Assembly: GCA_037442825.1 (NCBI GenBank) | Contig: JBBIPN010000021.1 | Coordinates: forward strand, 1 to 18,805 | Source: Sulfurihydrogenibium sp. | GTDB lineage: Bacteria; Aquificota; Aquificia; Aquificales; Hydrogenothermaceae | Direction of reading: 5' to 3' | Length of the DNA stretch: 18,805 bases | In this document: positions 418 through 15,561 of the stretch, piece by piece | Numbering within the stretch: the stretch's first letter is position 1 | How the letters are laid out: each line of letters starts with the position of its first letter | Made by a program: the position numbers and the translations under genes | The notes under the pieces: generated by a model | Databases searched by the model: none | Seen by the model: only the letters and a program-made list of their open reading frames with translations | What the model was told of the DNA's origin: nothing

Positions 418-445
418 TTGACAACTTTTATAATATAATTAGAAT
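418..445 (+). promoter_or_regulatory. sigma70-type promoter
   Basis: TTGACA (418-423), 16-bp spacer, TAGAAT (440-445). Additional TATAAT hexamers lie nearby. Confidence 0.55.
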
Positions 446-492: not shown

Positions 493-1410
493 ATGAAAAA
501 AGTTTTAACACTTGCAACAGCTGGTCTTTTAGCAGTATCTGCTTCATCAAAAGCAGCTGATTTATTGGTCAGCGTAGATCAAGCAAAAGATTTAGTAGGA
601 AAGGCTGTTTTTGTCAACGGTGATGACCCAAAAGTTTTTGCTCAAGGTCATATTCCAGGCTCCGTAAATGCATTTGCTCATGATCTTCACTATCTAAAGG
701 ATATTAGACAGTGTGGTGGTCTCCCTATGTGTGAGAAAAATGCTCAGAAGTTCATAAGTGAGCTTGGAATCAGCAACAACTCTCAGGTTATAGCTTATGA
801 TGATGGTAAAGGTCCAAATGCTTCAGGTGTATGGTTCTTCCTTTATTTATACGGTGTAGATAATGTTCAAATGTTAGACGGTGGTTTTGCTACTTGGAAA
901 GCAAAAGGTTTACCAGTAGAAACTGGACCAGCTAAAAAACCAGCTCCTGGAAAATTCACTGTTAAAGTAAGAAAAGAGATTTTAGCTACTAAAGATGAAG
1001 TCTTAAAAGCTAGTAAAGATGCGTCTTATGTAGTTTTAGATGCAAGAAGATTTGAAGAGTATACTGGAAAAACATTATTAGACGCTCTTGAAGCACCAGG
1101 AAAACACAAACAGGTTGAAAGAGGTGGTCACATTCCTGGATCTAAATTCTTTGAATGGAAAAAGATTGCTGGAAACCCAAACGGTGAGCCAGGCAAATCT
1201 TTATTTAAATCAGTTGATCAAATTAAAAAACAACTTGAAAGAGCAGGTATTACTCCAGACAAAACAGTTATATCTTACTGTCACGTAGGTTTAGGAAGAG
1301 GTTCTTTTGTATTTACTGCTTTAAAATTAGCAAGTTATTCAAAAGCAAAAGTCTACGTTGGTTCTTGGGATGAATGGGGTAATGATAAATCTTTACCTAT
1401 AGAACAATAA
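493..1410 (+). CDS. Secreted (Sec signal) tandem-domain rhodanese/sulfurtransferase family protein
   Basis: GGAGG RBS; signal peptide MKKVLTLATAGLLAVSASSKA; two GHIPGS motifs; inactive N-domain YDDG and LDGGF.TW; LDARR.EEY; catalytic YCHVGLGRGS; C-terminal YVGSWDEW rhodanese signature. Confidence 0.9.
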   Translation: MKKVLTLATAGLLAVSASSKAADLLVSVDQAKDLVGKAVFVNGDDPKVFAQGHIPGSVNAFAHDLHYLKDIRQCGGLPMCEKNAQKFISELGISNNSQVIAYDDGKGPNASGVWFFLYLYGVDNVQMLDGGFATWKAKGLPVETGPAKKPAPGKFTVKVRKEILATKDEVLKASKDASYVVLDARRFEEYTGKTLLDALEAPGKHKQVERGGHIPGSKFFEWKKIAGNPNGEPGKSLFKSVDQIKKQLERAGITPDKTVISYCHVGLGRGSFVFTALKLASYSKAKVYVGSWDEWGNDKSLPIEQ

Positions 1411-1419
1411 TTTTATCTT

Positions 1420-1449
1420 AAGCCGGTCTTAGGACCGGCTTCAATTTTT
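1420..1449 (+). terminator. GC-rich hairpin after the rhodanese gene (weak terminator or mRNA-stabilising stem)
   Basis: AAGCCGGTC-TTAG-GACCGGCTT perfect 9-bp stem (1420-1441), followed by an interrupted T-tract CAATTTTT. Confidence 0.6.
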
Positions 1450-1467
1450 ATCAAGGAGGTTTTTAGT

Positions 1468-2604
1468 ATGGAACATTCACACCATTTAATAATGGGTATA
1501 ATTACAGGTATGTTGTTTGGCTTTACACTGTTTAAAGTTGGAGCTGTTAGATATTCAAGAGTTGAAGGTCTACTTTTACTTAGAGATTTAAAAATTATGA
1601 AATTTGCTTTTACTGGAATAGCAACTGCTTCTATAATCTATGGGTTAGCTGATATATTAGGTTTTGCTGAATCTACAAACTTGATTCCAAGGATAATGCC
1701 ATATATGGGAGTTGCACATCTTATAGGTGGTGTTATGTTTGGAATAGCTATGGCTTCAGCTGGATTTTGTCCTGGTACATGTGTTGCAAGGGTTGGAGCA
1801 GGTAAGTTCATATCTGCAGCAGGTATAATAGGTTTAGTTTTAGGTATAGTTATTTACAATGCAATCCAACCAACCTTAGTAGAAGCTGGAATATTAGGAA
1901 GTAGGCAAGATTTAACATTGTATGGTGTACTTGGAATACCTTATGGTCCTTTAGCTGTAGCATGGGGAGTTTTATTTTTAATACTTGCTTTAGTTGCAGA
2001 TTGGTTAGATCCGGCTAAAAAATTTTATATAGAAGAAAATACAAATAAATCATTAGTAAATAGATTAATAAAATCTGAATGGCATTGGGCTGTAGGTGGT
2101 GTTGCAGCAGGATCTATCATTGCTTTGGCTACTGCACAAGGGGAATATTTAGGATTTTCTGGTGCTTTACTTGCATTAGTTGCATGGATAGGTGATTCTT
2201 TAGGCTATCCTCTTTCTAACGTGGTGCCAAAATTAAATGAAACTATATATTGGCATTCTGGATTAATCATTGGCGTACTACCTGGAGCATTTATTGCTTC
2301 TATAATATCTGGTAAATTTAAATTTGATCCGGTTCCACCAGCATTTGCCCAAGTTACTCCACTACCAATAGTCAGAATGATTCTTGTTTTCTTTGCAGGT
2401 ATATTCTTGGCATTAGGTGCTATGATAGGTGGTGGTTGTACTACTGGAGCATTTTTAGCAGCTTATCCAACACTTTCTATTGGAAGTATGGCAATGTCTG
2501 CAACATACTTTATTGTAGGTATATTAACTGCAAACCTTATATACTTAGGTAGATGGTCAAGATTTATAGAAGCTAAAAAGGCTTCTGAAGAACTTTACGA
2601 TTAA
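1468..2604 (+). CDS. YeeE/YedE family (thiosulfate/sulfur-compound transporter-like) membrane protein, two-domain fusion
   Basis: Polytopic Gly-rich membrane protein with G..FGF, GG.MFG.AM...GFCPGT and LGAMIGGGCTTG motifs typical of YeeE/YedE; AAGGAGG RBS. Confidence 0.85.
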   Translation: MEHSHHLIMGIITGMLFGFTLFKVGAVRYSRVEGLLLLRDLKIMKFAFTGIATASIIYGLADILGFAESTNLIPRIMPYMGVAHLIGGVMFGIAMASAGFCPGTCVARVGAGKFISAAGIIGLVLGIVIYNAIQPTLVEAGILGSRQDLTLYGVLGIPYGPLAVAWGVLFLILALVADWLDPAKKFYIEENTNKSLVNRLIKSEWHWAVGGVAAGSIIALATAQGEYLGFSGALLALVAWIGDSLGYPLSNVVPKLNETIYWHSGLIIGVLPGAFIASIISGKFKFDPVPPAFAQVTPLPIVRMILVFFAGIFLALGAMIGGGCTTGAFLAAYPTLSIGSMAMSATYFIVGILTANLIYLGRWSRFIEAKKASEELYD

Positions 2605-2621
2605 TTTTAGAGGTGGTTAAT

Positions 2622-2756
2622 ATGAGTATGACAGAAAGATTATTATTTTGGATAGCTATAGTAGTTTTAGTCGTAGCTACATTTGGTGTAAAGGGTAAAG
2701 TTGACAACTTGGAAAAGCAAGTTTCTCAAGTAAATCAGGCATTTGGAGGTGAGTAA
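2622..2756 (+). CDS. Small single-TM protein (44 aa), absent from the ORF track
   Basis: GAGGTG RBS at 2610-2615; MSMTERLLFWIAIVVLVVATFGVKGKVDNLEKQVSQVNQAFGGE*. It fills the gap between genes, ends 2 nt before the next start, and resembles the next protein's N-terminus. Confidence 0.75.
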   Translation: MSMTERLLFWIAIVVLVVATFGVKGKVDNLEKQVSQVNQAFGGE

Positions 2757-2758
2757 CA

Positions 2759-3250
2759 GTGAATCCAAAAATTGAAAGAAGTGTATATATAGGTATTATT
2801 GTTGTTTTATCAGTTATCCTTTTTGGCTTAGGTAAAAAAGAACTTGAACTTAAAAAACAGATACCTGTAACTGCAGAAGAACTTTATAAAAAACTTTCAA
2901 ATCCAAAAATAAAGGTACAAATCATAGATGTTAGAGAGTTAACTTCTTCTGATGAGGTTGGTGGATATGAAGATTCAAGAATACCTGGAGCTTTACCATT
3001 TCCAAACTGTGATGAAACAAACATGAATACAGAAAATTTAAAAGATGCTTTAAAAAGAATCAATCCTTATATGTATACAGTAATAGTTTCTACTGATGGA
3101 AATCCAGATATATTTAAAAAATGTACTACAAAATTTAACAATGCTCAAAACTTAACAGGTGGTATGAAAGCTTGGCAAGAAGCAGGATTACCAGATGAAT
3201 CTGGAGAGTATACACCACCTAAAGCAGGTGGCGGCGGTGGTTGTTTATAA
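2759..3250 (+). CDS. Membrane-anchored single-domain rhodanese-like protein with a C-terminal Gly-rich Cys tail
   Basis: GTG start with GGAGGTG RBS; N-terminal TM helix; IIDVRE, RIPGA and LTGGMKAW...GLP rhodanese motifs; catalytic position reads VIVSTDG (Ser instead of Cys); ends PPKAGGGGGCL. Confidence 0.8.
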   Translation: MNPKIERSVYIGIIVVLSVILFGLGKKELELKKQIPVTAEELYKKLSNPKIKVQIIDVRELTSSDEVGGYEDSRIPGALPFPNCDETNMNTENLKDALKRINPYMYTVIVSTDGNPDIFKKCTTKFNNAQNLTGGMKAWQEAGLPDESGEYTPPKAGGGGGCL

Positions 3251-3273
3251 AAACAATAACAGGAGGTTAACGT

Positions 3274-6159
3274 ATGGCAATTTCTAGAAGAGATTTCTTA
3301 AAAATAATGTCTACAACAGGAGTTGCTGTTGGAACTGTTTCTTCAGAAGCTTTTGCTAAGTCAAAAGCTGTAGTAGTAGAAGATCCAAGAGCTTCTTATC
3401 CAAATAGTTCTTTTGTTGAAAATATGTATCGAAAAGAATTTGCTTATACTTACGGTAAAAAAGAAGAGCATGGAACAGCTTACCACTGTGTAAACTGTCA
3501 AGGTAACTGTGCTTGGGACGTATGGGTTCAAAATGGTATAGTAACAAGGGAAAATCAAGTAGCAAACTATCCCCTTTTAAACCCAAAAATTCCAGATGCT
3601 AACCCAAGAGGATGTAATAAAGGTGTACAACACTCTCAAGTTATGTATGAAAAAGATAGAGTTTTATACCCTATGAAAAGAGTAGGAAAAAGAGGAGAAG
3701 GAAAGTGGAAAAGGATATCTTGGGATGAAGCAATCGCAGAAGTAGCAACAAGAATATACGAAACAATGTTAACAAAAGGACCTGCTGGAAACTATATTCA
3801 CGTTGGTGCAGGTATGTTAACAGAAGCAAGGGCAGCTTCAGGTAAAAGACTTGGTACACTTCTTGGGGCTGTAAGGCCTTACATAGCATCTTACGTTGGA
3901 GATATGTTCCCAGGTGTTTCTCTCGTTTATGGTGAAGGTAATATAGGATTTTCTTATGACTTTGTTTATACTGCAAACGTCCAAATCTGGTGGGGACAAG
4001 ATCCAAACAAAACAAGGATACCAGATGCTCACTGGGTTTGGGAAGGTAAATACAACGGTGGAAAAGTTATAGTAATAACTCCTGATTTTAATGCAACAGC
4101 TAAAGGAGCTGACCTTTGGGTTCCAGTTAGAGCTGGATATGATGGCTTCTTAGCAATGTCTATAATAAATGAGATAATTCAAAAGAAACTTTATAAAGCT
4201 AACTTTATAAAAGTATTCACAGATTTACCATTCTTAGTAAGACTTGATAACAAGAAACTTTTAAGATTATCAGATATTGATAAAAATGATTCAATGTTTG
4301 ATAAAAAAGTATTTCACGTTATGGAAGAAAAAGCTCATGGTAAAGAGTTTGAGGAAGATGCAGTATTCTTATCTTACAACTTAAAAAATGGTAAATTTAC
4401 AATAATGCCAGGTAGTGAAGGAAACCCTATTAAAACATTAAGATTAAAAGATTTAGGATGGGATATAGATCCAGCATTAGAAGGTGTATATGAAGTAAAA
4501 CTAAAAGATGGTTCAAAGGTAAAAGTTACACCTGCATTTGAACTACTTAAAGCAGAAGCTGCAAAATTTCCAGCTGAAAAAACATTTAAACTTACAAACG
4601 TTCATCCAAAAATAGTAGAACAACTTGCAAAAGATATAGCTCTTCCAAAAGTTGCCTTTATCTCTATGGGATTTACTATAGGAAAATACTTTAATGGTAT
4701 ATTAACTCAAAGAGCAATAGCATCTATAACACCACTCTGTGGAAGACTTGGACCTTACGGAGGATTTAACTCTGAAAACGAATGGTCAATCTCTGGTTTA
4801 GCTAAAATATCTGGATTTGCTGGAAAATATAAAGAAAGATTCGCTTCTGGTTTTGTAAGTGAGTTTGTATTAGGTAATATGATGGAAGATTTTGACAAAT
4901 TGTATGAAGAAGATACATTTAAAGAAGTAACGGGAATGTCTAAAGAAGAGTATAAGAAAAAAGTAAATGAAATGCTTGCAAAATCAGAAGGAGATAAAGG
5001 AATAGGTCATGGTAAATCATATTGGAAAGATATAGAAACATTTTTACTTTTTGCAGATGCAAGATTTAGAAGAAATAAAGGTAGTACATATAAAAAAGCT
5101 TTCTTAGAAAAAGCTAAATTTATAGCATATATTGATTTTAGAATGTCTGATTTTGCAAACTATGCAGATATAATACTTCCAGCAAAATCTCACTATGAAG
5201 TGTGGGATTTAAGAACTAACCCTGGTTATCACAGATTTGCCAACCTTGCTCACCCACCAACAAACTTAAAACCTGTTGGAGAAGCAAAATCTGAATGGGA
5301 AATATGTACTATGATTGTTGAAAAAATCCAAGAAATTGCAATGAAAAAGTACAAAGAAACAGGAGATCAAAAGTATATTAAAATACCAGATCCATTATCA
5401 AAAACAGGTTATAGAGATTTAGATACATTGGTTGAAGAGTATACTATTGGTGGTCAGTTAAGAACAGATAGAGATGCTGTTGAAATAGCTTTAGAAAATA
5501 CTGACCAATTTAAACCAAACACTATTGAGACAATGTTTAAAAGAGGTGGTTATCTCGTACTAAATGAAAAAGCTGGAAAGTCTTCTCCACTTTATCCTGA
5601 TAAACCTTACAACGTATTTGAAAATAACTTATACCTATATGAAAGATTTGAAACACTCTCAGGAAGAATAACTTACTACGTAGATGATGACTTATGGATA
5701 CAACAAGGTGCAAATGTACCAACAACAAAAGAACCAATAAGACCAAGAAGATTTCCATTTGTTCTTATGACACCACACGCAAGGTGGTCAATACACTCAA
5801 CTTATAAAACATCTACTTTACTCCTTAGATTACAAAGAGGAAAACCTTATGTAATGATAAATCCAGAAATAGCTAAGAAAAAAGGCATAAAAGATGGTGA
5901 GGAAGTAAGAGTATTTAACTCTATTGGTGAGTTTTATGCTATGGCAAAAGTTTATCCATCTTGTCCTAAGGATACGATTATTCTGGAACATGGATGGGAA
6001 CCATTTTTCTATAAAGGTAGAAAAGGACATAATGAGACTGTTGCATCACCACTTAACTTGTTAGAACTTTCAGATGGTTGGGGACATCTTAAATTTGGTG
6101 GAAATTGGGATGGAAACCAACTTGGTTATGAAACTTCAGTAGATGTAGAAAAAGTTTAG
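3274..6159 (+). CDS. Tat-exported Mo-bisPGD oxidoreductase alpha subunit, DMSO reductase family type II (SerA/DdhA/EbdA/periplasmic Nar-like); substrate unknown
   Basis: Tat motif SRRDFLK; FS0 motif HCVNCQGNC...NPRGCNKG (His plus 3 Cys); YPMKRVGKRGEGKWKRISWDEA; predicted Asp Mo ligand in SYVGDMFPG; TRIPDAH; C-terminal TPHARWSIHS. Confidence 0.88.
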   Translation: MAISRRDFLKIMSTTGVAVGTVSSEAFAKSKAVVVEDPRASYPNSSFVENMYRKEFAYTYGKKEEHGTAYHCVNCQGNCAWDVWVQNGIVTRENQVANYPLLNPKIPDANPRGCNKGVQHSQVMYEKDRVLYPMKRVGKRGEGKWKRISWDEAIAEVATRIYETMLTKGPAGNYIHVGAGMLTEARAASGKRLGTLLGAVRPYIASYVGDMFPGVSLVYGEGNIGFSYDFVYTANVQIWWGQDPNKTRIPDAHWVWEGKYNGGKVIVITPDFNATAKGADLWVPVRAGYDGFLAMSIINEIIQKKLYKANFIKVFTDLPFLVRLDNKKLLRLSDIDKNDSMFDKKVFHVMEEKAHGKEFEEDAVFLSYNLKNGKFTIMPGSEGNPIKTLRLKDLGWDIDPALEGVYEVKLKDGSKVKVTPAFELLKAEAAKFPAEKTFKLTNVHPKIVEQLAKDIALPKVAFISMGFTIGKYFNGILTQRAIASITPLCGRLGPYGGFNSENEWSISGLAKISGFAGKYKERFASGFVSEFVLGNMMEDFDKLYEEDTFKEVTGMSKEEYKKKVNEMLAKSEGDKGIGHGKSYWKDIETFLLFADARFRRNKGSTYKKAFLEKAKFIAYIDFRMSDFANYADIILPAKSHYEVWDLRTNPGYHRFANLAHPPTNLKPVGEAKSEWEICTMIVEKIQEIAMKKYKETGDQKYIKIPDPLSKTGYRDLDTLVEEYTIGGQLRTDRDAVEIALENTDQFKPNTIETMFKRGGYLVLNEKAGKSSPLYPDKPYNVFENNLYLYERFETLSGRITYYVDDDLWIQQGANVPTTKEPIRPRRFPFVLMTPHARWSIHSTYKTSTLLLRLQRGKPYVMINPEIAKKKGIKDGEEVRVFNSIGEFYAMAKVYPSCPKDTIILEHGWEPFFYKGRKGHNETVASPLNLLELSDGWGHLKFGGNWDGNQLGYETSVDVEKV

Positions 6160-6172
6160 GGAGGTATTGTAG

Positions 6173-7327
6173 ATGTCAAAAAGACAACTTGCAATGGTAA
6201 TGGATTTAAATAAATGTATTGGTTGCCAAACATGTACAGTAGCATGTAAAACACAATGGACAAACAGAAATGGAAGAGAGTACATGTATTGGAACAACGT
6301 AGAAACACATCCAGGAGCAGGATATCCAAAAAATTGGATGGAGGCTGGTGGTGGTTTTGATCAAGAAGGAAACTTAAAAGATGGCATTATTCCAGATATG
6401 GTTTTAGATTATGGTGTACCTTGGGATTACAACCACGATGAACTTTTTAACGGTGGTTTATTACACACAAAAGAAAACTTAGAATATGGCCCAAACTGGG
6501 ACGAAGACGTAGGTGGTGGAGAATATCCAAACTCTTACTTCTTCTATATTCCAAGAATATGTAACCACTGTTCTAACCCAGGATGTTTAGCAGCATGCCC
6601 AAGGGAAGCTATCTTTAAAAGAGAACAAGATGGTATTGTTTTAGTTGACTTAGAAAGATGTCAAGGTTATAGATACTGTATAGCTGGATGCCCTTACAAA
6701 AAGATTTACTTTAATCCCAAAATATCAAAATCTGAAAAGTGTATATTCTGTTTCCCAAGGGTGGAAAAAGGTTTACCACCAGCATGTGCTCATCAATGTG
6801 TAGGTAGAATAAGATTTGTAGGTTTCTTAGATGATGAAGAAGGACAAGTTTACAAATTGGTACACAAATATAAAGTAGCTTTACCACTTAGACCAGACTT
6901 TGGAACACAACCAAACGTATACTATGTACCACCTCTATTTGATGCACCTAAATTTGATGACAAAATGGATTCGATAGAAAACTCAAGAAGAGTACCAATA
7001 GAATACTTAGAATTACTCTTTGGTAAAGAGGTTCATCAAGCTTTAGATACATTAAGGAAAGAAATGGAAAAAAGAGCAAAAGGAGAAGAATCAGAACTAA
7101 TGGATATACTTATAGCATACAGCCATAGAGATATGTTTAGACTTGATAATAACTACTATCAAAAAGAGGCTGTAGCTAAAAATCTAAAAGGTTCTGAATT
7201 CTTTAAAGTAATAGATCAAAGATATTTACAAGGTGCAAATACCAAAAAAGTTGAGATAAAAGATTACACATTCCATGAAAAAGTATTACCTTTACCACCG
7301 AGAGAAAATGGACATGGTCACCATTAA
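6173..7327 (+). CDS. Type II DMSO reductase family iron-sulfur beta subunit (NarH/SerB/DdhB-like)
   Basis: MDLNKCIGCQTCTVACK, YMYWNNVET, PRICNHCSNPGCLAACP, CQGYRYCIAGCPY (3Fe-4S type) and KCIFCFPR..PPACAHQCVGRIR; GTQPNVYYVPP. Confidence 0.92.
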   Translation: MSKRQLAMVMDLNKCIGCQTCTVACKTQWTNRNGREYMYWNNVETHPGAGYPKNWMEAGGGFDQEGNLKDGIIPDMVLDYGVPWDYNHDELFNGGLLHTKENLEYGPNWDEDVGGGEYPNSYFFYIPRICNHCSNPGCLAACPREAIFKREQDGIVLVDLERCQGYRYCIAGCPYKKIYFNPKISKSEKCIFCFPRVEKGLPPACAHQCVGRIRFVGFLDDEEGQVYKLVHKYKVALPLRPDFGTQPNVYYVPPLFDAPKFDDKMDSIENSRRVPIEYLELLFGKEVHQALDTLRKEMEKRAKGEESELMDILIAYSHRDMFRLDNNYYQKEAVAKNLKGSEFFKVIDQRYLQGANTKKVEIKDYTFHEKVLPLPPRENGHGHH

Positions 7328-7330
7328 TAT

Positions 7331-7354
7331 AAAAAGGGGGTTATACCCCTTTTT
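7331..7354 (+). terminator. Intrinsic terminator-like hairpin between the beta and gamma genes
   Basis: AAAAAGGGG-GTTATA-CCCCTTTTT; A/T tracts on both sides (bidirectional type). Confidence 0.65.
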
Positions 7355-7385
7355 GATAAAAAACAACGGAATAAGGAGGAACCTA

Positions 7386-8513
7386 ATGAAAAAATATTTA
7401 ACATTGTTGGCTTTATCTTCATTAGTAGTTGTATCAAATGCAAGTACAGAAGATTTTAATGACGATTTAATAGAAGCAAAACAAGTAACAAAAATAGATG
7501 AATCTACATTATCTTCAATAGAAACAAAAAAGATAATATTATATCCACAGTACACTGTTCATTTAAACGATAAAGACGCAAATAAAAAATTACAGAACGC
7601 AAAACCTATAGAGGCAGAAGTTGGTGTAGTATACAATAAAAAAGATATAGGTATTGTTATTAAATGGAACGATGAAACAAAATCCATACAACCAAGTATG
7701 ACAACTAACAAATTTGGCGATGGTACATCTGTAGAATTTCCTACAGTTTATGGAAAAGGAAAAACCTTAGCTTACATTGGCATGGGTGATTCAAACCATC
7801 CTGTTATGGTTTATTTAAAAAAAGCTGTAGAAGGTAAAGATTATAAGAAAGCTTTCATATCAGAAGGCTTTGGAACAATGACAGAAGTTCAAGAGAAGTA
7901 TAATTTTACAATGAAGTACGATGAAAATAAAAAAGAATGGACAGCTATACTCGTAAAACCATTAAAAACACAAGATTTAATATTATCTGGATTAGTACCT
8001 GTTGCTTTTGCAGTTTGGGATGGAGATTCTTTAAATAGAGATGGTAATAAAATGATTTCTAGCTGGAAATTTGTAAAATTAGGAAAATCTAATCCTGATA
8101 CATCTTATATTAAATACATATCTTATGGTTATGGGGAAATTGGAAATCATCAGAAAGGGAAAGAGCTAATGATACAAAATGGTTGTAATGGTTGTCACAG
8201 ATTTGATGACCAAACATCAGCTCCAGAAGGTTTAGCTCCAAATTTATCTAAAATAGGTGGATATTCAAATCCAATATATCTAAAAGAATCTATAATCAAT
8301 CCTAATGATGTTGTTATCAAAAACTTAAATATAAATAGACACTACAATAAATCAGCAGATAGAGATAAAAATGGTGCATATCCCAACAACGATATGTATA
8401 CTTGGTATATAAAAAGTGAAAAAGGAAAATTACAATCAAAAATGCCACCTTATTCACATCTATCAGAACAAGATATTAACGATATTATAACTTATTTAAA
8501 AACTCTTAAATAA
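7386..8513 (+). CDS. Gamma subunit: secreted heme-b DOMON-like (EbdC/SerC/DdhC-type) domain fused to a C-terminal c-type cytochrome
   Basis: Start corrected from 7275 to ATG 7386 (AAGGAGG RBS at 7373-7379; signal peptide MKKYLTLLALSSLVVVSNA). N-domain has IKWND, FGDG..VEFP, YIGMG (candidate Met ligand) and VAFAVWDG...RDGNK (candidate Lys ligand). C-domain has CNGCH, APNLSKIG, YLKESIINP and the distal Met in SKMPPY. Confidence 0.85.
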   Translation: MKKYLTLLALSSLVVVSNASTEDFNDDLIEAKQVTKIDESTLSSIETKKIILYPQYTVHLNDKDANKKLQNAKPIEAEVGVVYNKKDIGIVIKWNDETKSIQPSMTTNKFGDGTSVEFPTVYGKGKTLAYIGMGDSNHPVMVYLKKAVEGKDYKKAFISEGFGTMTEVQEKYNFTMKYDENKKEWTAILVKPLKTQDLILSGLVPVAFAVWDGDSLNRDGNKMISSWKFVKLGKSNPDTSYIKYISYGYGEIGNHQKGKELMIQNGCNGCHRFDDQTSAPEGLAPNLSKIGGYSNPIYLKESIINPNDVVIKNLNINRHYNKSADRDKNGAYPNNDMYTWYIKSEKGKLQSKMPPYSHLSEQDINDIITYLKTLK

Positions 8514-8526
8514 GGAGGAAATAAAG

Positions 8527-8928
8527 ATGAAAAAATTATTTTTATCCTTTTTAGCAGCATCTTTTATAATGGGCATATCTTTTGCAGATGAAGAAGTAGG
8601 AGAAGAGATAGAACTATCAAGTGCAGTTATAACTGCAAAGTCATGTGCAGAAAAAGCTAAAGAAACAGGAAGTTTTGAACTTCTATCCAACTGTCCCCCT
8701 GTAGAAGCGGCTAAAACGGGATACGTAGTATATGATGTTACAGAAAACACGTTTTATTCTATTGCCCCTAAAAATGTATACTTTTTTGAACTTGATGAAG
8801 GTTTTGGTGGAAGTATAGATGTATCAGGAAAGATTCTAGGAAAAGAAGGAGATCTACCTGTTATTGAAGTACAAGATTATAAAATATCACCAAAACCAAA
8901 AGCTGGATTCTTTAAAGGATGTTTATAA
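8527..8928 (+). CDS. Small secreted acidic protein of unknown function with an internal Cys pair and a C-terminal GCL tail
   Basis: AAGGAGG RBS; signal peptide MKKLFLSFLAASFIMGISFA; Cys in KSCAE and SNCPP; beta-rich pattern; ends PKPKAGFFKGCL. Confidence 0.8.
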   Translation: MKKLFLSFLAASFIMGISFADEEVGEEIELSSAVITAKSCAEKAKETGSFELLSNCPPVEAAKTGYVVYDVTENTFYSIAPKNVYFFELDEGFGGSIDVSGKILGKEGDLPVIEVQDYKISPKPKAGFFKGCL

Positions 8929-8963
8929 TTGAACATTAAAATATCTAAATAAATTGAATAAAT

Positions 8964-8992
8964 TTGACTTAATGGAAAAGTTTATATATAAA
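8964..8992 (+). promoter_or_regulatory. Possible internal sigma70 promoter for module 2
   Basis: TTGACT (8964-8969), 17 bp, TATAAA (8987-8992) in a 94-bp intergenic gap. The AT-rich background weakens the match. Confidence 0.4.
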
Positions 8993-9022
8993 ATTAAGTA
9001 TTTAAACTAATGGAGGTTAGTT

Positions 9023-9658
9023 ATGAGACTTGGCTTTTTGGTAGATTTAAGTAGATGTATGGGATGTATGGCTTGTGCAGTATCTTGTAAAGCTGAAAAT
9101 GATGTTCCATTACACAGTTGGAGGTTGAGGGTCAAGTATATAGACCAGGGTGAGTTTCCAGATGTAAAAAGACATTTTGTACCACTTAGATGTAATCACT
9201 GTGAAAATGCTCCATGTGAGAGAATTTGTCCAGTAAGTGCATTACATTATTTACCAAATGGTATAGTCAATGTAGACCATAACAGATGCATTGGTTGTGC
9301 TTCTTGTATGATGGCTTGTCCATATAACGCTATATACATTGATCCAATAACAAACTCTGCTGATAAATGTACTTACTGTGCTCATAGAATAGAAGTTGGA
9401 ATGATGCCTGCTTGTGTAGTTGCATGTCCAACCCATGCAAATATTTTTGGAGACCTTGATGATCCAGAAAGTGAGATATCTAAATATTTAAAAGAACATA
9501 GAGATGTAATGGTTAGAAAACCAGAATTAAATACAAAACCTAAACATTTCTATGTTAGAGGTTCTACTGTTGCATTAGATCCACTTGCATCGGAAAGACC
9601 AGAAGGATATACACTCTTTACCGAAGTTAAATTTTTAGATCATATAGGAGGGCATTAA
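9023..9658 (+). CDS. Four-cluster ferredoxin subunit B (PsrB/TtrB/NrfC-like)
   Basis: CMGCMACAVSC, CNHCENAPCERICP, CIGCASCMMACPY and KCTYCAHR...PACVVACP; no signal peptide; GGAGG RBS. Confidence 0.9.
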   Translation: MRLGFLVDLSRCMGCMACAVSCKAENDVPLHSWRLRVKYIDQGEFPDVKRHFVPLRCNHCENAPCERICPVSALHYLPNGIVNVDHNRCIGCASCMMACPYNAIYIDPITNSADKCTYCAHRIEVGMMPACVVACPTHANIFGDLDDPESEISKYLKEHRDVMVRKPELNTKPKHFYVRGSTVALDPLASERPEGYTLFTEVKFLDHIGGH

Positions 9659-9660
9659 TC

Positions 9661-10542
9661 ATGTTAGGTGCAGAAGTAACTTTTGACGTTGCTTTACCTA
9701 AGGTAATTTGGGGATGGCTTGTTTCAACAAATATGTGGGCAAAAAGTATTGCAACAGGTAGTTTTTTAATTGGTATTTATTTTATAAAAAAATACCCAGA
9801 GAAAGATGCATTTTTTAGAAAATGGATTCCATTATTAGGTTTAATATTTATAGGTATTACACTGTTAGTAACAGTTTTAGATTTACATCATATGTTTAGA
9901 TTTTGGAAAATTTTCTTATTCGCTCATTTCACTTCAGCTGTTACATTAGGTGCATGGGTTGTATCAGCATTTGTTTTAGTATTACTTGTATCTTTTTGGT
10001 CTTGGGTTACAGGAAATAAAAAACTATTCGATAAGGTAATGCTCCCAGGTACTGTATTAGCATTTTTCTCTACCATTTACACTGCTGGAATTATGGGAGA
10101 AGCTACTGCAAGAGAGATATGGGTATTTCCAGCTGAGATGGTTCAAATGCTTTTATCTGCAGTTTTAGCAGGTTCTGCAGTATACTTGCTTTTAATGTCA
10201 ATTTTTAGCGTTCAATTAGAAGAGGTCAAAAGGGAACTTAGATATATATTTATAGGTACTGCTTCTTTGTCAGCCGCAATGTATATAGGAGAGTTAATGT
10301 TTGCAAAAATGCATTCAGAATTTTCCAATAGGGTTGTAGAAGTTTTAGCTTTTGGGGAACTTGCTCCTATGTTTTGGCTTGGAATATTCTTAACATTTAT
10401 TATACCTATCGTACTTATAGGAATAGCTAATGAAAATAAGAAATACGAGTATTTCTTACTTGGGTCTATATCTGCATTAATTGGTCTTTGGCTTGTAAAA
10501 CATTCATGGCTTTTAGCTCCTCAAATGTTACCATTAAGTTAA
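9661..10542 (+). CDS. NrfD/PsrC-family quinone-interacting membrane anchor subunit C
   Basis: About 8 hydrophobic helices; WG..V, LDLHH.FRFW, TSAVTLGAW and YTA motifs typical of NrfD/PsrC. Confidence 0.85.
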   Translation: MLGAEVTFDVALPKVIWGWLVSTNMWAKSIATGSFLIGIYFIKKYPEKDAFFRKWIPLLGLIFIGITLLVTVLDLHHMFRFWKIFLFAHFTSAVTLGAWVVSAFVLVLLVSFWSWVTGNKKLFDKVMLPGTVLAFFSTIYTAGIMGEATAREIWVFPAEMVQMLLSAVLAGSAVYLLLMSIFSVQLEEVKRELRYIFIGTASLSAAMYIGELMFAKMHSEFSNRVVEVLAFGELAPMFWLGIFLTFIIPIVLIGIANENKKYEYFLLGSISALIGLWLVKHSWLLAPQMLPLS

Positions 10543-10558
10543 TAGTGGAGGGAAAGAG

Positions 10559-13500
10559 ATGATAAGAACATCAAGAAGAAATTTTTTAAAAGGATCTGCA
10601 GCATCAATAGGAGGATTAGCTCTAGCTAAAGGTGTTTTTGAAAAAGTTGATGCTAATAGCAAAGTAGCAAACAATCAAGAATTAACATTTGAAACAAAAC
10701 ATCTTGACTATTATCCACCTTTTGAAAAGTGGAATGATTGGAAAGAACCAGAAGGTGCTTACTGGAAAACACATGGTGGAGCACTTAGAGATGGTGTTAA
10801 ACTTATAAACTATATGATAGTTCCAACAGCTTGTAACAACTGTGAAGCTTCTTGTGGTCTTACAGGATGGGTAGATAAAGATACAATGGTTGTAAAGAAG
10901 TTTATGGGTAATCCTTTCCATTCTGGTTCAAGAGGTAGAAACTGTGCAAAAGGATACGCATCCTTAGCCCAGATGTATGACCCAGATAGAATACCATTTC
11001 CATTAAAAAGAGCTCCAGGTAGTAAAAGAGGAGAAAATAAATGGATTAGAACTACGTGGGAAGAAGCTTTAGAAACTATTGGTAAAAAAATTAGAGAAGT
11101 TTTACAAAGAGGCGATGAAATATCTAAGAAACAGATAAACTATCAGGTAGGAAGACCAAACGAAATGAGTTTCAACGTAAAAAGGGTTGTTTGGTCTTGG
11201 GGAATAGACGGTAGAAATAGCCATACAAATATATGTTCATCAAACGGTAGATTTGGATCTATATTATGTGTTGGTGATGACAGAACATCTCCAGACTTTG
11301 CAAATTCAAGATTAATAATCCTCAACTCTTCCCATGCTGCAGATGCAGGTCACTACTATCAACAGCATGCTAGTTATATAGCAGATGCAAGGGCAAAAGG
11401 TGCAAAGTTGGTTGTAGTTGATCCAAGGTTGTCAAACTCTGCAGGTATGGCTGACCTTTGGATACCAACATGGCCTGGAACTGAAGCAGCATTATATTTA
11501 GCAATTTTAAATAAAATAATACAAGAAGGCAAGTATGATAGAAAGTTCGCAGAAAGATGGCTTAACTGGAAACAGCTTATGAAAGATAAAGAATATCTTA
11601 ACTACTTAAAAGAAAATGGATATATCTCATCTATACCTTCTGGTGAGACATTTGATGATTTCATAAGCTTACTTAAGGATATGTATAAAGATTATACATT
11701 TGAGTGGGCTGCAGAAGAGTGTAGAGTTCCTGTAGATAGGATATATAAACTTTATGAAATGGTAGTATGGGCTGGAAACGCTATTACAAACTATCAATGG
11801 AGAGGTCCAGCTGCAGGAAATAGAGGTGGTTGGTTAGTTGGAAAAGTTATGAATATGTTACTTGCCTTTATGGGATCTATAGGTTCTGTTGGTGGATTAG
11901 GATGGTCCCACTGGCATAAAATTGACGTTGGTGACAAAGGTGGAGATGCATGTATGGCAGATAAACCCGAAAAAATAAATGTTTGGAATGAGCTTCACTA
12001 TCCACCAGAATGGCCTTTATCTTCATATGAACTTAGTTTCATATATCCACATCTTTTGATAGATGATGAATGGAGAAATAAATGGAAAGAAAAAGGACTT
12101 AAAATACCAGATAAAGTAGAAGTTTGGTTTTCAAGAATATACAATCCTGTATGGATCAATCCAGACGGTTTTAGATGGGTTGAAGTACTAAAAGATGAAA
12201 ACAAATTTGGTTTGAATATCTATATGTCTCCTAACTGGGCTGAAACAGCATTTTACTGTGATTATATCTTACCTATGGGACTTGCAGGAGAAAGACACGA
12301 TCAACATTCTGAACCTACAAAACCAGAAAAATGGACATCATTTAGACAGCCAGTTTTAAGAGTTGCACTAATGAAATTAGGATGGAAGCCAAACGATCCT
12401 GCTAAAGCTACTCTTGAAGCACATAAAAAAGTAGGACTTGGTGAAGTATGGGAAGAAAACGAATTTTTCATCAATCTCGCTTTCCATATAGATCCAGATG
12501 GAATCTTAGGAATAAGAAAATACTGGGAATCAAAACAAAATCCTGGTAAGCCAGTTACAATTGAAGAGTATTACAATGCAGCATTTTCTAAATTACCAAG
12601 ACTATCAGAAGTATGTAAACAACTTGGTGTTACACCTTATGAGTATATGAGAGACAGAGGTGCTTGGACAGAAGCTTCAAACCTATACTACATAATGGAA
12701 AAACCACTTCCTTACGATGAACAAAAAGATGTTTACAAATATAAAGATAAAGAAATTCCAAAATCATCTATTAAAATAGATGAAGAGTTAGCTATCGCAT
12801 ATGTAGAAGAAGAAGGTAAAAAGCATAACATCGGTGTCTATAAAGATGGTAAAATTTTACAAGGGTTCCATACACCATCAGGACATATAGAGTTTTACTC
12901 TAAAACACTAAAAGAATGGAAATGGTCAGAGTACGCTGTCCCTTACTATCCTAAAAATAGAGAAGAAAGACAAAAGATGATACACATTGTTAGCCAAGTA
13001 CACCATGATTATATGACAGAAGAAAATGCCTTTGTATTAAATCCTATATACAGATTACCTTACTTAATACATACAAGAAGTGTTAACGCAAAATGGCTTA
13101 TGGAGATAGGCCAAAACCATAATCCACTTTGGATATACGAAAAAGATGCAAGAAAACTTGGTATAAACAGAGGAGATTCTGTAAAAGTTTGGGTTGTAGA
13201 TACACTAACAGGTATAAAAACAGGTTACTTTGTAGCAATGGCAATGCCAACACAAGCTACAAGACCTGGTGTAGTTGCATGTTCACACCACAATGGAAGA
13301 TGGAGACTTGTAAATGAAGTAAAAGTAGAAGGATTTGAACATCCACTTAGTGTAATGAGACTTGGTTCAGTTCTTGCAGAGATTAAAACAGAAGGTAGTA
13401 AGTATTTCTTAAGGACAAAAGAAGGGGTAAAACCTTTCAAATCATGGCAGTTCCCTGAATTTAACAAAGATACAGAGCTAATTTGGTGGAAAGGTACAAA

Positions 13501-13774
13501 CGGTGTATTCCAAAACGCTGTATTTCCAGCAAATCCAGATCCATTATCTGGTATGCAATGTTGGCATAAGAAAGTTTTAATAGAAAAAGCTGGTCCAGAA
13601 GATAAGATAGGTGATGTATTTGTTGATATTCAAAAAACATTTGAAGTATATAAAGCATGGAGAGATCAACTTACACGACCAGCTCCAGGACCAGGAGGTC
13701 TTAGAAGACCGAAATGGATGCCAAGACCATGGGTACCATTAACAGATGAAGCATACAAAATGCCAAGTGCTTAA
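10559..13774 (+). CDS. Tat-exported Mo/W-bisPGD oxidoreductase subunit A of the Psr/Ttr/Arr lineage (polysulfide/tetrathionate/thiosulfate reductase-like); substrate unknown
   Basis: Tat motif SRRNFLK; FS0 motif CNNCEASC...GRNCAKG; YDPDRI.FPLKR..RGENKW; predicted Cys Mo ligand in NSHTNICSS; VVVDPRLS; PGTEAA; C-terminal HTRS.N.KWL.E. Confidence 0.85.
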   Translation: MIRTSRRNFLKGSAASIGGLALAKGVFEKVDANSKVANNQELTFETKHLDYYPPFEKWNDWKEPEGAYWKTHGGALRDGVKLINYMIVPTACNNCEASCGLTGWVDKDTMVVKKFMGNPFHSGSRGRNCAKGYASLAQMYDPDRIPFPLKRAPGSKRGENKWIRTTWEEALETIGKKIREVLQRGDEISKKQINYQVGRPNEMSFNVKRVVWSWGIDGRNSHTNICSSNGRFGSILCVGDDRTSPDFANSRLIILNSSHAADAGHYYQQHASYIADARAKGAKLVVVDPRLSNSAGMADLWIPTWPGTEAALYLAILNKIIQEGKYDRKFAERWLNWKQLMKDKEYLNYLKENGYISSIPSGETFDDFISLLKDMYKDYTFEWAAEECRVPVDRIYKLYEMVVWAGNAITNYQWRGPAAGNRGGWLVGKVMNMLLAFMGSIGSVGGLGWSHWHKIDVGDKGGDACMADKPEKINVWNELHYPPEWPLSSYELSFIYPHLLIDDEWRNKWKEKGLKIPDKVEVWFSRIYNPVWINPDGFRWVEVLKDENKFGLNIYMSPNWAETAFYCDYILPMGLAGERHDQHSEPTKPEKWTSFRQPVLRVALMKLGWKPNDPAKATLEAHKKVGLGEVWEENEFFINLAFHIDPDGILGIRKYWESKQNPGKPVTIEEYYNAAFSKLPRLSEVCKQLGVTPYEYMRDRGAWTEASNLYYIMEKPLPYDEQKDVYKYKDKEIPKSSIKIDEELAIAYVEEEGKKHNIGVYKDGKILQGFHTPSGHIEFYSKTLKEWKWSEYAVPYYPKNREERQKMIHIVSQVHHDYMTEENAFVLNPIYRLPYLIHTRSVNAKWLMEIGQNHNPLWIYEKDARKLGINRGDSVKVWVVDTLTGIKTGYFVAMAMPTQATRPGVVACSHHNGRWRLVNEVKVEGFEHPLSVMRLGSVLAEIKTEGSKYFLRTKEGVKPFKSWQFPEFNKDTELIWWKGTNGVFQNAVFPANPDPLSGMQCWHKKVLIEKAGPEDKIGDVFVDIQKTFEVYKAWRDQLTRPAPGPGGLRRPKWMPRPWVPLTDEAYKMPSA

Positions 13775-13789
13775 CCATAAAAATTTAAT

Positions 13790-13814
13790 GAGGGCTTTTA
13801 TGCCCTCTTCTTTT
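13790..13814 (+). terminator. Intrinsic terminator-like hairpin after subunit A
   Basis: GAGGGC-TTTTAT-GCCCTC followed by TTCTTTT. Confidence 0.65.
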
Positions 13815-13835
13815 AAAATATATCAGGAGTAATGT

Positions 13836-14480
13836 ATGGACGAAAAAATTCAAGAAAACCAAGCAAGAATAAATATGTACGCTTTTATATCCCGTTTATT
13901 AGTTGAAGAAGTAGATAAAAAGCTATTAGAAAACATTAAAAATAATAAAGACCTTATAGAATTATTTCCACATACAAAACAATGGGAGACATTTTATCAA
14001 AAATCTACAAAAGAGATAATTGAAGAAGATCTAAATGTAGATTACACAACAATTTTTATACTTAACGTATATCCTTATGAATCTGTATTTATGAATGATG
14101 AAGGACATATAAATCCTACCCCTACAAACCCTACACTACAGTTTTATCTTGAAAATGGTTATGAAGTAGATTTGAATAAAACAAGAGTATTATCTCCAGA
14201 TCATTTAGCATTAGAGTTAGAGTTTATGATAACACTTATACAAGAACAGCTTAAGTCCTATTCCATAAACAAAATTGAAGAAGAAAAAAAATATTTAGAC
14301 TTACAAAAAAAGTTTATGGAAAATCATCTATTACAATGGGCTCCAATATATCTTATGACAGCAAGAGATATGGCAGAAACACCATTTTACTATGATGTAT
14401 GCCAACTTTCTCTTGATTTTATAATGTCAGATTATGAATATATATTAGAGCAGTCAGAAAGGATGGAAAATGTCAGATAG
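13836..14480 (+). CDS. TorD/DmsD-family redox enzyme maturation chaperone
   Basis: YPYESVF, PDHLALELEFM, HLLQW and FY motifs of the TorD/DmsD family; AGGAG RBS. Confidence 0.88.
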   Translation: MDEKIQENQARINMYAFISRLLVEEVDKKLLENIKNNKDLIELFPHTKQWETFYQKSTKEIIEEDLNVDYTTIFILNVYPYESVFMNDEGHINPTPTNPTLQFYLENGYEVDLNKTRVLSPDHLALELEFMITLIQEQLKSYSINKIEEEKKYLDLQKKFMENHLLQWAPIYLMTARDMAETPFYYDVCQLSLDFIMSDYEYILEQSERMENVR

Positions 14481-15561
14481 ATTACATTTTGATATATATT
14501 CTTGTGTAAGAGTTTACTATAGATATGCTGATTGTAAAAAATGCTTAGAAGTATGTCCTATAGAAAACACCATATATTTAGAAAACGATAAAATAAAAGT
14601 AAATCCACAATCTTGTGTGTTATGTAGTGCATGTGTAGGTAACTGTCCTACAGAAAGTTTTAAAATAGAGGGTTTTGATATAAATAACTTCTATAAAAAG
14701 TTCTTAGAAAGTGAAAACAATTTAATATCTTGTAAATTAAATATACCTTGTTTATCTGCTTTAGATGAAAACTATTTAGTCTCTATAGTAATAGAAAAAG
14801 AAAGTGATTTAATGTTAGACATTGGTCACTGTAGTAGTTGTCAAATAGAAAAACAGACTGATATCATCAACAAAAATGTAGAAAAAGCAAACTATATTTT
14901 AGATCAAATATCTTATCCTTATAGAGTCAAAATAGAAAATATAAGCTATACTAAACCAGAGCAACCAAAAAACAAAAGAAGGTCTTTTTTGAAAATATTC
15001 GCAAAACAAACAGCAGCATTAGCTTTTTGGATGATTGAAGATAAGATTCCTTTTGAAGATGAGAAAAGAAAAGAAGAAAATAAAAATTTCAAAAATATAG
15101 TTAGTGAAAAAGTAAATCCAATTAAAAGAGATATACTTTTATCTTCTCTCTCTAAAATAGAAGATAAAGAAAACAGATATTTTGAAGTAGATAAAATTGA
15201 ATTTTCTTCTGATAAATGGATAGATAGCTATAAATGTACAAACTGTTCTATCTGTTATAACGTTTGTCCCAGTGGAGCTTTATCACCAGATAGTTCTAAG
15301 TTAAAAGTATTATTTTCACCTACATTATGTATAAAATGTAGAATATGTCATGATGTTTGCCCAGAAAAATGTATATATTTAGAAGAAAAACTTTGTCTAT
15401 CTGATTTTATTTCTGATAAATATAAAGTTTTAGCTGAGCATGTTATGATTCCTTGTAGTGAATGTTTAGTTCCATTTTCTTATAAAGGGGATTCTACAGT
15501 TTGTCCTCGTTGTAGACAGTTAGAAGATGATTTAAAAGAGCTGTTAAAAATAGGAGATTAA
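14470..15561 (+). CDS. Cytoplasmic polyferredoxin (4Fe-4S dicluster protein), probable maturation or electron-transfer accessory
   Basis: CKKCLEVCP, CVLCSACVGNCP, CSSC, CTNCSICYNVCP, CIKCRICHDVCP and terminal CSEC...CPRC; overlaps the chaperone gene by 11 nt. Confidence 0.82.
   Translation: MSDRLHFDIYSCVRVYYRYADCKKCLEVCPIENTIYLENDKIKVNPQSCVLCSACVGNCPTESFKIEGFDINNFYKKFLESENNLISCKLNIPCLSALDENYLVSIVIEKESDLMLDIGHCSSCQIEKQTDIINKNVEKANYILDQISYPYRVKIENISYTKPEQPKNKRRSFLKIFAKQTAALAFWMIEDKIPFEDEKRKEENKNFKNIVSEKVNPIKRDILLSSLSKIEDKENRYFEVDKIEFSSDKWIDSYKCTNCSICYNVCPSGALSPDSSKLKVLFSPTLCIKCRICHDVCPEKCIYLEEKLCLSDFISDKYKVLAEHVMIPCSECLVPFSYKGDSTVCPRCRQLEDDLKELLKIGD

Follow-up and report, generated by a model that had tools for sequence, protein, structure and literature searches.

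Truncated Sox systems need a partner to reach sulfate. SoxCD, rDsr and sHdr are the only partners named in the accessible part of PMC13500833, and no SoxCD is reported there in Aquificota (published work is cited throughout from the accessible part of each source). Genomes without these three systems are currently read as producers of elemental sulfur (S0). The sHdr and rDsr pathways are cytoplasmic. Sulfurihydrogenibium dominates sulfidic hot-spring mats, yet SoxCD, rDsr and sHdr were all not found where tested. In this study, a 13-gene cluster was analysed in an 18,805-nt stretch of Sulfurihydrogenibium sp. DNA (GenBank assembly GCA_037442825.1, contig JBBIPN010000021.1), hereafter the window. 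The window corresponds to contig C21 of genome G000, which measures 1.35 Mb and is 99% complete. Module 1 of the cluster consists of Rhd1, YeeE, a 44-aa peptide, Rhd2, the molybdoenzyme subunits A1, B1 and G1, and Orf133; module 2 consists of B2, C2 (NrfD), A2, TorD and a polyferredoxin. The sequence evidence leans towards module 1 being a periplasmic sulfane-sulfur dehydrogenase, built from parts unrelated to SoxCD and taking over its role, and module 2 being a separable quinone-linked enzyme that would probably serve the same sulfur pool.

The distribution of module 1 was compared with that of known sulfane-oxidising systems in 60 Aquificales relatives and 221 Campylobacterota genomes. The Aquificales were divided into the window's family (f1, taken as Hydrogenothermaceae, n = 36), its sister family (f2, presumably Aquificaceae, n = 16) and a third family (f3, n = 8). 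In Campylobacterota, the searches for A1, A2 and SoxC as a rule scored only three candidates per genome. Because PF00174 and PF02754 are too unspecific for SoxC and sHdr, SoxC was scored with TIGR04555, and sHdr with an sHdrB1 query taken from G037, which has a full sHdr-type cluster. A1 orthologues were found in 31/36 f1, 0/16 f2 and 0/8 f3 genomes. Seven matches in f2, only 33–36% over about 290 aa, were not counted as orthologues. A2 was found in 30/36, 0/16 and 0/8 genomes, respectively. sHdrB1 mirrored A1 (0/36, 16/16 and 0/8) and was not found in the window genome either. SoxB was present in 27/36 f1 and 16/16 f2 genomes; SoxC was over the cut-off in none of the 36 f1 and 16 f2 genomes, nor in G000. 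The single f3 genome over the SoxC cut-off (G052) had neither SoxB nor A1. Searches of G000 and three f1 relatives found neither DsrA nor SOR.

Among the 221 Campylobacterota genomes, SoxB was present in 30. A1 was found in 9/9 genomes with SoxB and without SoxC, versus 1/21 genomes with both. All 25 A2-bearing genomes had exactly one of A1 (14) or SoxC (11). In G097 and G079, module 1 lay 6–9 kb from a soxXYZAB operon without soxCD. Sulfuricurvum PC08-66 was described with soxAXBYZ, no soxCD and a 'Nar', and was concluded to be an S0 producer (PMC4288042). The PC08-66 bin encodes an A1 orthologue (P0459), which may be this 'Nar'. Module 1 tracks the absence of the known sulfane-oxidising systems in both phyla, and on this pattern it appears to complete a truncated Sox system. 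The first-pass annotation had proposed independence from both Dsr and Sox. The lack of DsrA in the four f1 genomes and of SoxC agreed with this, but 'Sox-independent' needs refining, since module 1 appears to work with the truncated Sox system. As a separate observation, the cluster lay about 7 and 16 kb from soxB in two f1 genera (L182 of G012 and L183–L184 of G014, respectively).

The molybdoenzyme A1B1G1 belongs to the type II dimethyl sulfoxide (DMSO)-reductase family. For locus counts, the best 80 of 529 A1-related loci were fetched, and the 13 cluster proteins were mapped onto each. The 80 loci comprised 26 from Aquificota (18 long enough to show module 2 and 8 cut short) and 54 others, some cut short. 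A1 D210 aligned with D170 of PcrA, the Asp ligand of molybdenum (Mo), and was kept in 80/80 loci. The ligands H71/C75/C79/C114 (His-3Cys) of cluster FS0 matched the PcrA-type pattern, and an extra Cys72 was near-invariant (79/80). The gate residues F164/Y165 of PcrA were replaced in A1 by I/A (73/80 and 80/80 loci), which may widen the channel, while A1 W504 aligned with PcrA W461. The A1 model had a mean predicted local distance difference test score (pLDDT) of 92 and a template modelling (TM) score of 0.84 to PcrA. A1 scored below all cut-offs for named-enzyme alpha subunits, including TIGR03479 (Table 1), EbdA (355/2000 bits) and NarG (230/1084 bits). ClrA was the nearest named relative with 36% identity. 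In a 44-row FastTree phylogeny (Shimodaira–Hasegawa (SH)-like support only, with a long-branch warning, and built without SerA, DdhA, EbdA, PcrA and Wolinella-type PsrA), A1 formed its own 7-row clade with support 100, on its own long branch beside ClrA. Both were within a 10-row clade with support 100, and A1 was separate from ClrA, NarG and haloarchaeal NarG. Thus, A1 did not fall inside a proven nitrate or selenate reductase clade among the references used.

B1 passed the family cut-off (Table 1). The heme-b gamma domain of G1 passed PF09459 (37.3 vs. 33.3 bits), but reached only 86 vs. 170 bits for TIGR03477. The most likely start of G1 is ATG 7386 behind an AGGAGG site, not 7275. G1 had no 19-residue hydrophobic segment and carried CxxCH at 267–271. 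M133 and K222, which we take to be the heme-b ligands by analogy to EbdC, were kept in 68/68 loci, and CxxCH and M353 in 67/67. Both A1 and A2 start with RRxFLK, a twin-arginine translocation (Tat) motif, and both are PF00384 proteins, not members of PF00174, the SoxC-type sulfite-oxidase family. These results bore out the earlier description of two Tat molybdoenzymes, one of them an Asp-ligated type II enzyme connected to heme b and heme c with no membrane anchor.

The sulfur-handling proteins were nearly always encoded with A1. Rhd1 and B1 were each present in 75 of the 80 loci, YeeE and Rhd2 each in 72, G1 in 68 and Orf133 in 62; with a looser threshold, the Orf133 count rose to 65. Rhd1 C263 was kept in 75/75 loci and C74/C80 in 73/73; Rhd1 likely loads sulfane sulfur onto carriers. 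In YeeE, C101 was kept in 71/71 and C324 in 72/72 loci. A tandem duplication or triplication of YeeE was observed in two Hydrogenothermaceae loci (L024:6988–9290 and L032:5855–9310). The 44-aa peptide was found in 23/80 loci, all from Aquificota, although distant copies of so short a peptide may be missed. Rhd2 has an N-terminal membrane helix, and its usual rhodanese loop position was S/T/G/A, with no Cys, in 72/72 loci. A GCL-stop tail ended 72/72 Rhd2 and 65/65 Orf133 proteins, and no selenocysteine tail was found among the 137. Rhd2 is likely a tethered carrier, and Orf133 is likely a soluble one.

The model of Orf133 (pLDDT 89) is a beta-barrel whose tail has low confidence (71/52). Its best fold matches were OB-fold proteins, with a modest Z of up to 7.2, a root-mean-square deviation of 3.0 and 75 aligned residues. 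Foldseek gave no match to the model at E <= 0.001, and the SoxY fold was not among the 50 VIA-align matches listed. Orf133 was then co-folded with A1 residues 70–950, giving a complex score of 0.84 vs. 0.00 for the best of three controls; the mark for this score was reached by 116/157 solved complexes and 2/215 mismatches. The contacts agreed by at least 76% between runs, the partner pLDDT was at least 83, and the interface had 80–92 contacts. The contacts included A1 494/505/507, around W504, and Orf133 126–128, four residues before C132. In the predicted complex, Orf133 thus sits on A1, and its tail comes close to the loop that corresponds to the substrate gate of PcrA.

Recurring neighbours of module 1 were surveyed in 1346 filtered open reading frames (ORFs) from the 54 non-Aquificota loci. 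A Mrp/NUBPL protein was found in 28/54 loci, and molybdenum cofactor (Moco) genes were also common. A sulfite-oxidase-family enzyme similar to SorA or SorT was found in 12/54 loci; all ten that were scanned had PF00174 and PF03404, and for seven, SorA or SorT was the best-scoring model, with scores below the cut-off. A caa3-type oxidase was found in 11/54 loci (3 scanned), an upstream ArsR-rhodanese regulator in 8/54 (1 scanned), and a persulfide-dioxygenase-like protein in 3/54 (2 scanned). A flavoprotein which we take to be SQR-like, from its motif, was found in 3/54. These neighbours point to sulfite as a possible product and oxygen as a possible sink of module 1.

We infer the following scheme for the loading, oxygen transfer and electron path of module 1. 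Polysulfide, thiosulfate or SoxY-persulfide would supply the sulfane sulfur, which Rhd1 would pass to the tail Cys of Orf133 and Rhd2. The tail would bring the persulfide to the Asp-ligated Mo, where oxygen from water would be added, giving sulfite, or a sulfonate that releases sulfite. Electrons would flow from FS0 through B1, heme b and heme c to cytochrome c oxidase. A SorA-type enzyme, where present, would take sulfite to sulfate, and YeeE would exchange sulfur with the cytoplasm. The chances are about even that module 1 represents a fourth, convergently built route of sulfane-sulfur oxidation beside SoxCD, rDsr and sHdr, in which an OB-fold swinging-arm carrier presents a protein-bound persulfide to an enzyme of the DMSO-reductase family. 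Such a route would complete the truncated Sox of Hydrogenothermaceae, Sulfuricurvum and related lineages, and would let myxobacteria and Bdellovibrionota draw electrons from sulfur. The gap in sulfur oxidation by truncated Sox would then be closed by named genes, and 'Nar' annotations that feed nitrogen-cycle inferences would be corrected. It would also provide a type II molybdoenzyme working on a protein-bound substrate, of which we know no example.

The window genome contains soxXYZAB, with a SoxY ending in GGCG, flavocytochrome c-like genes and two heme-copper-family subunits. Just three PF00384 enzymes were found in it: A1, A2 and an arsenite oxidase. The large and small subunit genes of the arsenite oxidase (C31:11302–14435, − strand) adjoin a two-component system. 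Published expression data are available for a sulfidic Sulfurihydrogenibium mat (PMC6918859). Genes 1, 2, 3, 5, 6, 7, 8 and 11 of scaffold YNG2014_100266 carry annotations that match the window cluster read in reverse, and gene 8 has 492 bp, as Rhd2 does. The scaffold appears to be an orthologous cluster holding both modules, matched by order, annotation and one length, not by sequence. Proteins of all eight genes were detected in the mat, and each of the four methods gave a detection for A1 and B1. The RNA of the two rhodaneses reached 5792 and 2007 fragments per kilobase per million mapped reads (FPKM), versus 88–329 for soxX, Y and Z. In the accessible part of that paper, the Mo enzymes of the scaffold were not treated as one sulfur system. 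A Sulfurihydrogenibium gene in the same paper is annotated both as 'heterodisulfide reductase B' and 'succinate dehydrogenase C', and has the same 291-aa length as a two-CCG protein of the window genome (C8:5880–6755, − strand), which follows an SdhB-like gene. The published 'hdr' in Sulfurihydrogenibium may be a succinate dehydrogenase subunit.

In A2, C226 aligned with the Cys ligand of PsrA, and the four FS0 ligands C92/95/99/129 were all Cys; each was invariant in 24/24 sequences. A2 was far under the cut-offs for PhsA (141/694 bits), TtrA (58/1750) and ArrA (82/1600), and was about 24–27% identical to PhsA, TtrA and YnfE over part of its length. It formed its own clade with proteins of Thermomicrobium, Rhodococcus and Natrinema, whose place relative to PhsA, TtrA and a SoeA-like protein was left undecided by the tree without Wolinella-type PsrA. 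The Rhodococcus copy adjoins DsrE, TusA and three genes of the metallo-beta-lactamase (MBL) fold. The A2 rows of the residue-conservation table were left out, as they were confounded by paralogue matches, and a 23% match in L046 proved to be a Nap-type gene and was dropped from the counts. A2 had been assigned to the Psr/Ttr lineage with access to quinone through NrfD. The Cys ligand and the PF03916 match of C2 agreed with this, but A2 is not PsrA, PhsA or TtrA proper. The B2 gene (9023–9658) is unusually conserved, with 93–99% across Aquificota loci vs. 64–92% for its neighbours.

The 'psrA1' primers of Sulfurovum indicum (PMC10045233) mapped on the A2 orthologue of Sulfurovum mangrovi with 18/22 and 23/25 matching bases and the stated 149-bp product. 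The Sulfurovum A2 orthologue is published as putative psrA1, and its function there is putative. Expression of psrA1 in Sulfurovum indicum showed a non-significant increase under S0 reduction; under oxidising conditions it was high, at 24306 on S0 and 16069 on thiosulfate (PMC10045233). PF09459, the gamma-domain family of module 1, had 0 hits in the data published with that study. Module 2 goes with sulfur oxidisers and is probably a separable quinone-linked enzyme serving the same sulfur pool as module 1. Its most likely reaction is the interconversion of polysulfide and sulfide with quinone as partner, followed in likelihood by sulfite:quinone oxidation.

The module-1 loci are titled Aquificota, Myxococcota, Bdellovibrionota, Campylobacterota and, in a few cases, Pseudomonadota. 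The order of the two modules did not arise by chance, because module 2 follows module 1 in 17/18 informative Aquificota loci. Outside Aquificota, module 2 was within 10 kb of module 1 in just 9/54 loci. A1 was found in 20 and A2 in 25 of the Campylobacterota genomes; the 14 with both never had them on one stretch, the modules being more than 400 kb apart (8 genomes) or on different contigs (6). A1 occurred without A2 in six genomes, and A2 with SoxC but without A1 in 11. Given this linkage in Aquificota and separation elsewhere, the cluster is a fusion of two units, fixed in the window's family. All seven Campylobacterota-titled loci were without YeeE and Rhd2, and 5/7 carried TorD and ferredoxin directly. 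As a further observation, a divergent set upstream of Rhd1 in Campylobacterota (L179/L178, L181, L185 and L186) comprises a repeat protein of about 190 aa, often an uncharacterised 118-aa protein, and a Mrp/NUBPL ATPase.

The assignment of module 1 as a sulfane-sulfur dehydrogenase has several points against it. Full oxidation would take several two-electron steps at one Mo site, for which we know of no precedent in this enzyme class. The tail C132 itself was outside the confident contacts of the predicted complex. The Fisher p of 7e-7 for the Campylobacterota A1/SoxC pattern overstates the case, as kin are not independent, and the A1/sHdr split in Aquificales may reflect one gain and one loss. 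The 99% complete genome G003 has SoxB without A1, A2 and B1, and the complete same-genus genome G004 has no Rhd2 and an A1 without the first 122 residues. G105, one of the nine key Campylobacterota A1 matches, covers only residues 4–691, and SoxB was missing in 10/20 A1-positive Campylobacterota. Many module-1 hosts are Myxococcota or Bdellovibrionota, which are not, to our knowledge, recognised sulfur oxidisers. For the step from sulfite to sulfate, no known oxidiser was found in G000: SoeA was not found, and the SorA-like gene (C74:3321–4288, − strand) is broken by several stops, while a SorA-like frame of about 400 aa was kept in 7/8 genus relatives. A weak MBL-fold match in 30/36 f1 genomes (E 1e-12 to 1e-18) could be a persulfide dioxygenase. 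According to the accessible part of bioRxiv 10.64898/2026.06.14.732183, sulfur donors do not support growth of one isolate of the family. In G004, YeeE runs straight into the shortened A1 (L143:2391–6109), which makes this locus a candidate for natural loss of function.

Other explanations were weighed against the same evidence. Both modules could form one unit of coupled disproportionation, as the first-pass annotation had suggested, with module 2 reducing S–S bonds with quinol and module 1 oxidising the same carrier-bound sulfur. The joint cluster in Aquificota (17/18 loci, vs. 9/54 elsewhere) would fit, as would the single TorD/ferredoxin pair that can sit behind either module, the presence of both modules in one mat proteome (PMC6918859), and the Sox-bearing Campylobacterota that disproportionate by a route reported as unknown (PMC9948710). 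This explanation is unlikely: the synteny stood in Aquificota, but the modules were mostly separate in Campylobacterota and other phyla, and unlinked in 14/14 Campylobacterota genomes where they co-occur. A2 pairs with SoxC without A1 in 11 genomes, and A1 occurs without A2 in 6; the neighbours point to cytochrome c oxidase, and 'aquific' has 0 occurrences in the accessible part of a survey of disproportionators (PMC12998232). It is somewhat less likely still that A1B1G1 is a reductase of selenate, chlorate, nitrate or thio-arsenate and that the sulfur proteins handle the product. In favour of this reading, ClrA (36%) is the nearest named relative and shares the 10-row clade (support 100) with A1. 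As far as the accessible text of bioRxiv 10.64898/2026.06.14.732183 goes, selenate, nitrate and arsenate are all reduced by an isolate of the family whose annotation lists neither a nitrate nor a selenate reductase, and Sulfuricurvum has been credited with 'Nar' (PMC4288042). These points are opposed by the low alpha-subunit score and own long branch of A1, the invariant sulfur-carrier tails, the exclusion of SoxC by A1, the abundance in a sulfide mat (PMC6918859) and the loss of the PcrA gate residues.

The chemistry could also be as proposed but serve another purpose, such as removal of toxic persulfide or polysulfide, or biosynthetic sulfur supply via YeeE, instead of energy conservation. 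This is quite improbable, because a caa3-type oxidase is co-encoded in 11 loci and a SorA/SorT-like enzyme in 12, the Campylobacterota versions lack YeeE, and module 1 fills the SoxCD gap in chemolithotrophs. The heterotrophic lifestyle of many hosts, the ArsR-rhodanese regulators upstream in 8 loci, and the Rhodococcus A2-family gene beside DsrE, TusA and three MBL-fold genes speak for it. The least probable explanation assigns the Cys-tailed proteins to the Mo centre, which they would sulfurate or protect as maturation factors or fixed subunits, while the substrate of A1 would be a small free molecule, for example sulfite, thiosulfate or an organosulfur compound. The predicted Orf133–A1 interface is as large as for a stable subunit (80–92 contacts), Mrp/NUBPL genes (28 loci) and Moco genes recur near module 1, and no known sulfite oxidiser was found in G000. 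However, the same flexible terminal GCL is kept by two independent proteins, partners of this kind are not required by characterised type II enzymes (ClrABDC locus), and in the mat the expression of the rhodaneses far exceeds that of the sox genes (PMC6918859).

The 13 genes at 493–15561 are all on the + strand; 12 were listed ORFs, and the 44-aa single-helix ORF was added. The Pfam and NCBIfam assignments agreed with the inventory of the first-pass annotation (Table 1). The cluster is flanked by a gyrA-like start and mutS2. The nearest named loci were from an Aquificales metagenome-assembled genome (95%) and Sulfurihydrogenibium yellowstonense (94% in A1). Promoter-like sites were not enriched in the window (50 vs. 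67.9 ± 8.6 in shuffles), and the count of terminators or hairpins was no higher than in shuffles. GC-rich hairpins lie after Rhd1 (1420–1441), B1 (7337–7349) and A2 (13790–13807), and may set different transcript levels. The contig ends with two ordinary housekeeping genes, mutS2 (15566–17851, − strand) and a gene which is presumably lpxD-like (17852–18805, − strand).

Table 1. Features of the sulfur–molybdoenzyme cluster in the window
Feature	Position	Strand	Basis
Best sigma-70-like site upstream of the cluster (lead only)	418..445	+	11 of 12
Rhd1, exported tandem-domain rhodanese, active loop C263-HVGLGR	493..1410	+	PF00581 twice
YeeE/YedE-family membrane sulfur transporter	1468..2604	+	PF04143
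44-aa single-helix membrane microprotein	2622..2756	+	ORF + helix
Rhd2, membrane-anchored rhodanese-fold protein, GGG-C-L tail	2759..3250	+	PF00581
A1, Tat-exported type II DMSO-reductase-family alpha subunit	3274..6159	+	TIGR03479 812 bits, cut-off 985
B1, type II Fe-S beta subunit	6173..7327	+	TIGR03478 531 bits, cut-off 481
G1, soluble heme-b gamma domain fused to monoheme cytochrome c	7386..8513	+	PF09459 + PF00034
Orf133, exported OB-fold-like protein (predicted), FKGCL tail (C132)	8527..8928	+	model; no Pfam/NCBIfam family
B2, four-cluster Fe-S subunit of module 2	9023..9658	+	TtrB model 197 bits, cut-off 416
C2, NrfD/PsrC membrane quinone-site subunit	9661..10542	+	PF03916
A2, Tat-exported Cys-ligated Mo-bis(pyranopterin guanine dinucleotide) (Mo-bisPGD) alpha subunit, uncharacterised family	10559..13774	+	
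TorD/DmsD-type maturation chaperone	13836..14480	+	PF02613
Polyferredoxin, 363 aa, travels with the chaperone	14470..15561	+	

No published description of the cluster as a system was found in a search that left most subscription papers and bioRxiv supplements outside. The system is likely undescribed as far as the literature was searched, with most of its parts from old families. The picture drawn by the first-pass annotation, a periplasmic system with carrier-bound sulfur, an oxygen-transfer enzyme on heme b and heme c and a second, quinone-linked enzyme, was supported. The MOLY and YTD clusters of sulfur-disproportionating Desulfobacterota share with it a molybdopterin enzyme with TorD and a YedE-family gene (PMC13490349, PMC12998232). 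Unlike YTD, the window cluster has no TusA or DsrE by Pfam and NCBIfam scans of its genes; the module hosts have no DsrA where tested, and MOLY was compared by description, not by the MolyA sequence. Module 2 resembles PsrABC, PhsABC, TtrBCA and SoeABC in its Cys-ligated alpha subunit, four-cluster beta subunit and NrfD-type anchor, and its B-C-A order is as in ttr. It differs from them in that A2 is about 24% identical to PhsA and TtrA, far below the NCBIfam cut-offs and in its own clade, and in that psrA1 of Sulfurovum indicum, a member of the A2 family, is highly expressed during sulfur oxidation too (PMC10045233).

A1B1G1 shares with ClrABC, SerABC, DdhABC, EbdABC and PcrAB a Tat-exported alpha subunit with an Asp ligand and His-3Cys FS0, a beta subunit over the family cut-off, a heme-b gamma subunit, and the TM score of 0.84 to PcrA. 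Unlike these enzymes, A1 has its own clade, the extra C72 and I/A in place of the gate F164/Y165, the gamma subunit is fused to cytochrome c, and a rhodanese and a Cys-tailed protein are encoded alongside the enzyme in nearly all cases. The likely net task of module 1, completing truncated Sox, is the same as that of sHdr-LbpA and rDsr, where sulfurtransferases and a YeeE-like transporter also take part. However, module 1 is exported, the cluster has no Hdr, lipoate-binding or Dsr gene, and module 1 and sHdrB1 were mutually exclusive in the Aquificales searched. Compared with SoxCD, A1 is a Mo-bisPGD type II enzyme, not a sulfite-oxidase-family one, and there is no homology. Compared with SoxYZ, Orf133 is predicted to be OB-fold-like, with SoxY not among its 50 listed fold matches. 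Module 1 also differs from Sox in having its own rhodanese and two carriers, and it occurs without SoxB in half of the Campylobacterota cases. Like SoxYZ/SoxCD, module 1 is periplasmic, has a Gly-Cys C-terminal arm on the carrier, which is a shared trait and not homology, and joins a Mo enzyme to heme c. Module 1 holds the same genomic role as SoxCD beside soxXYZAB.

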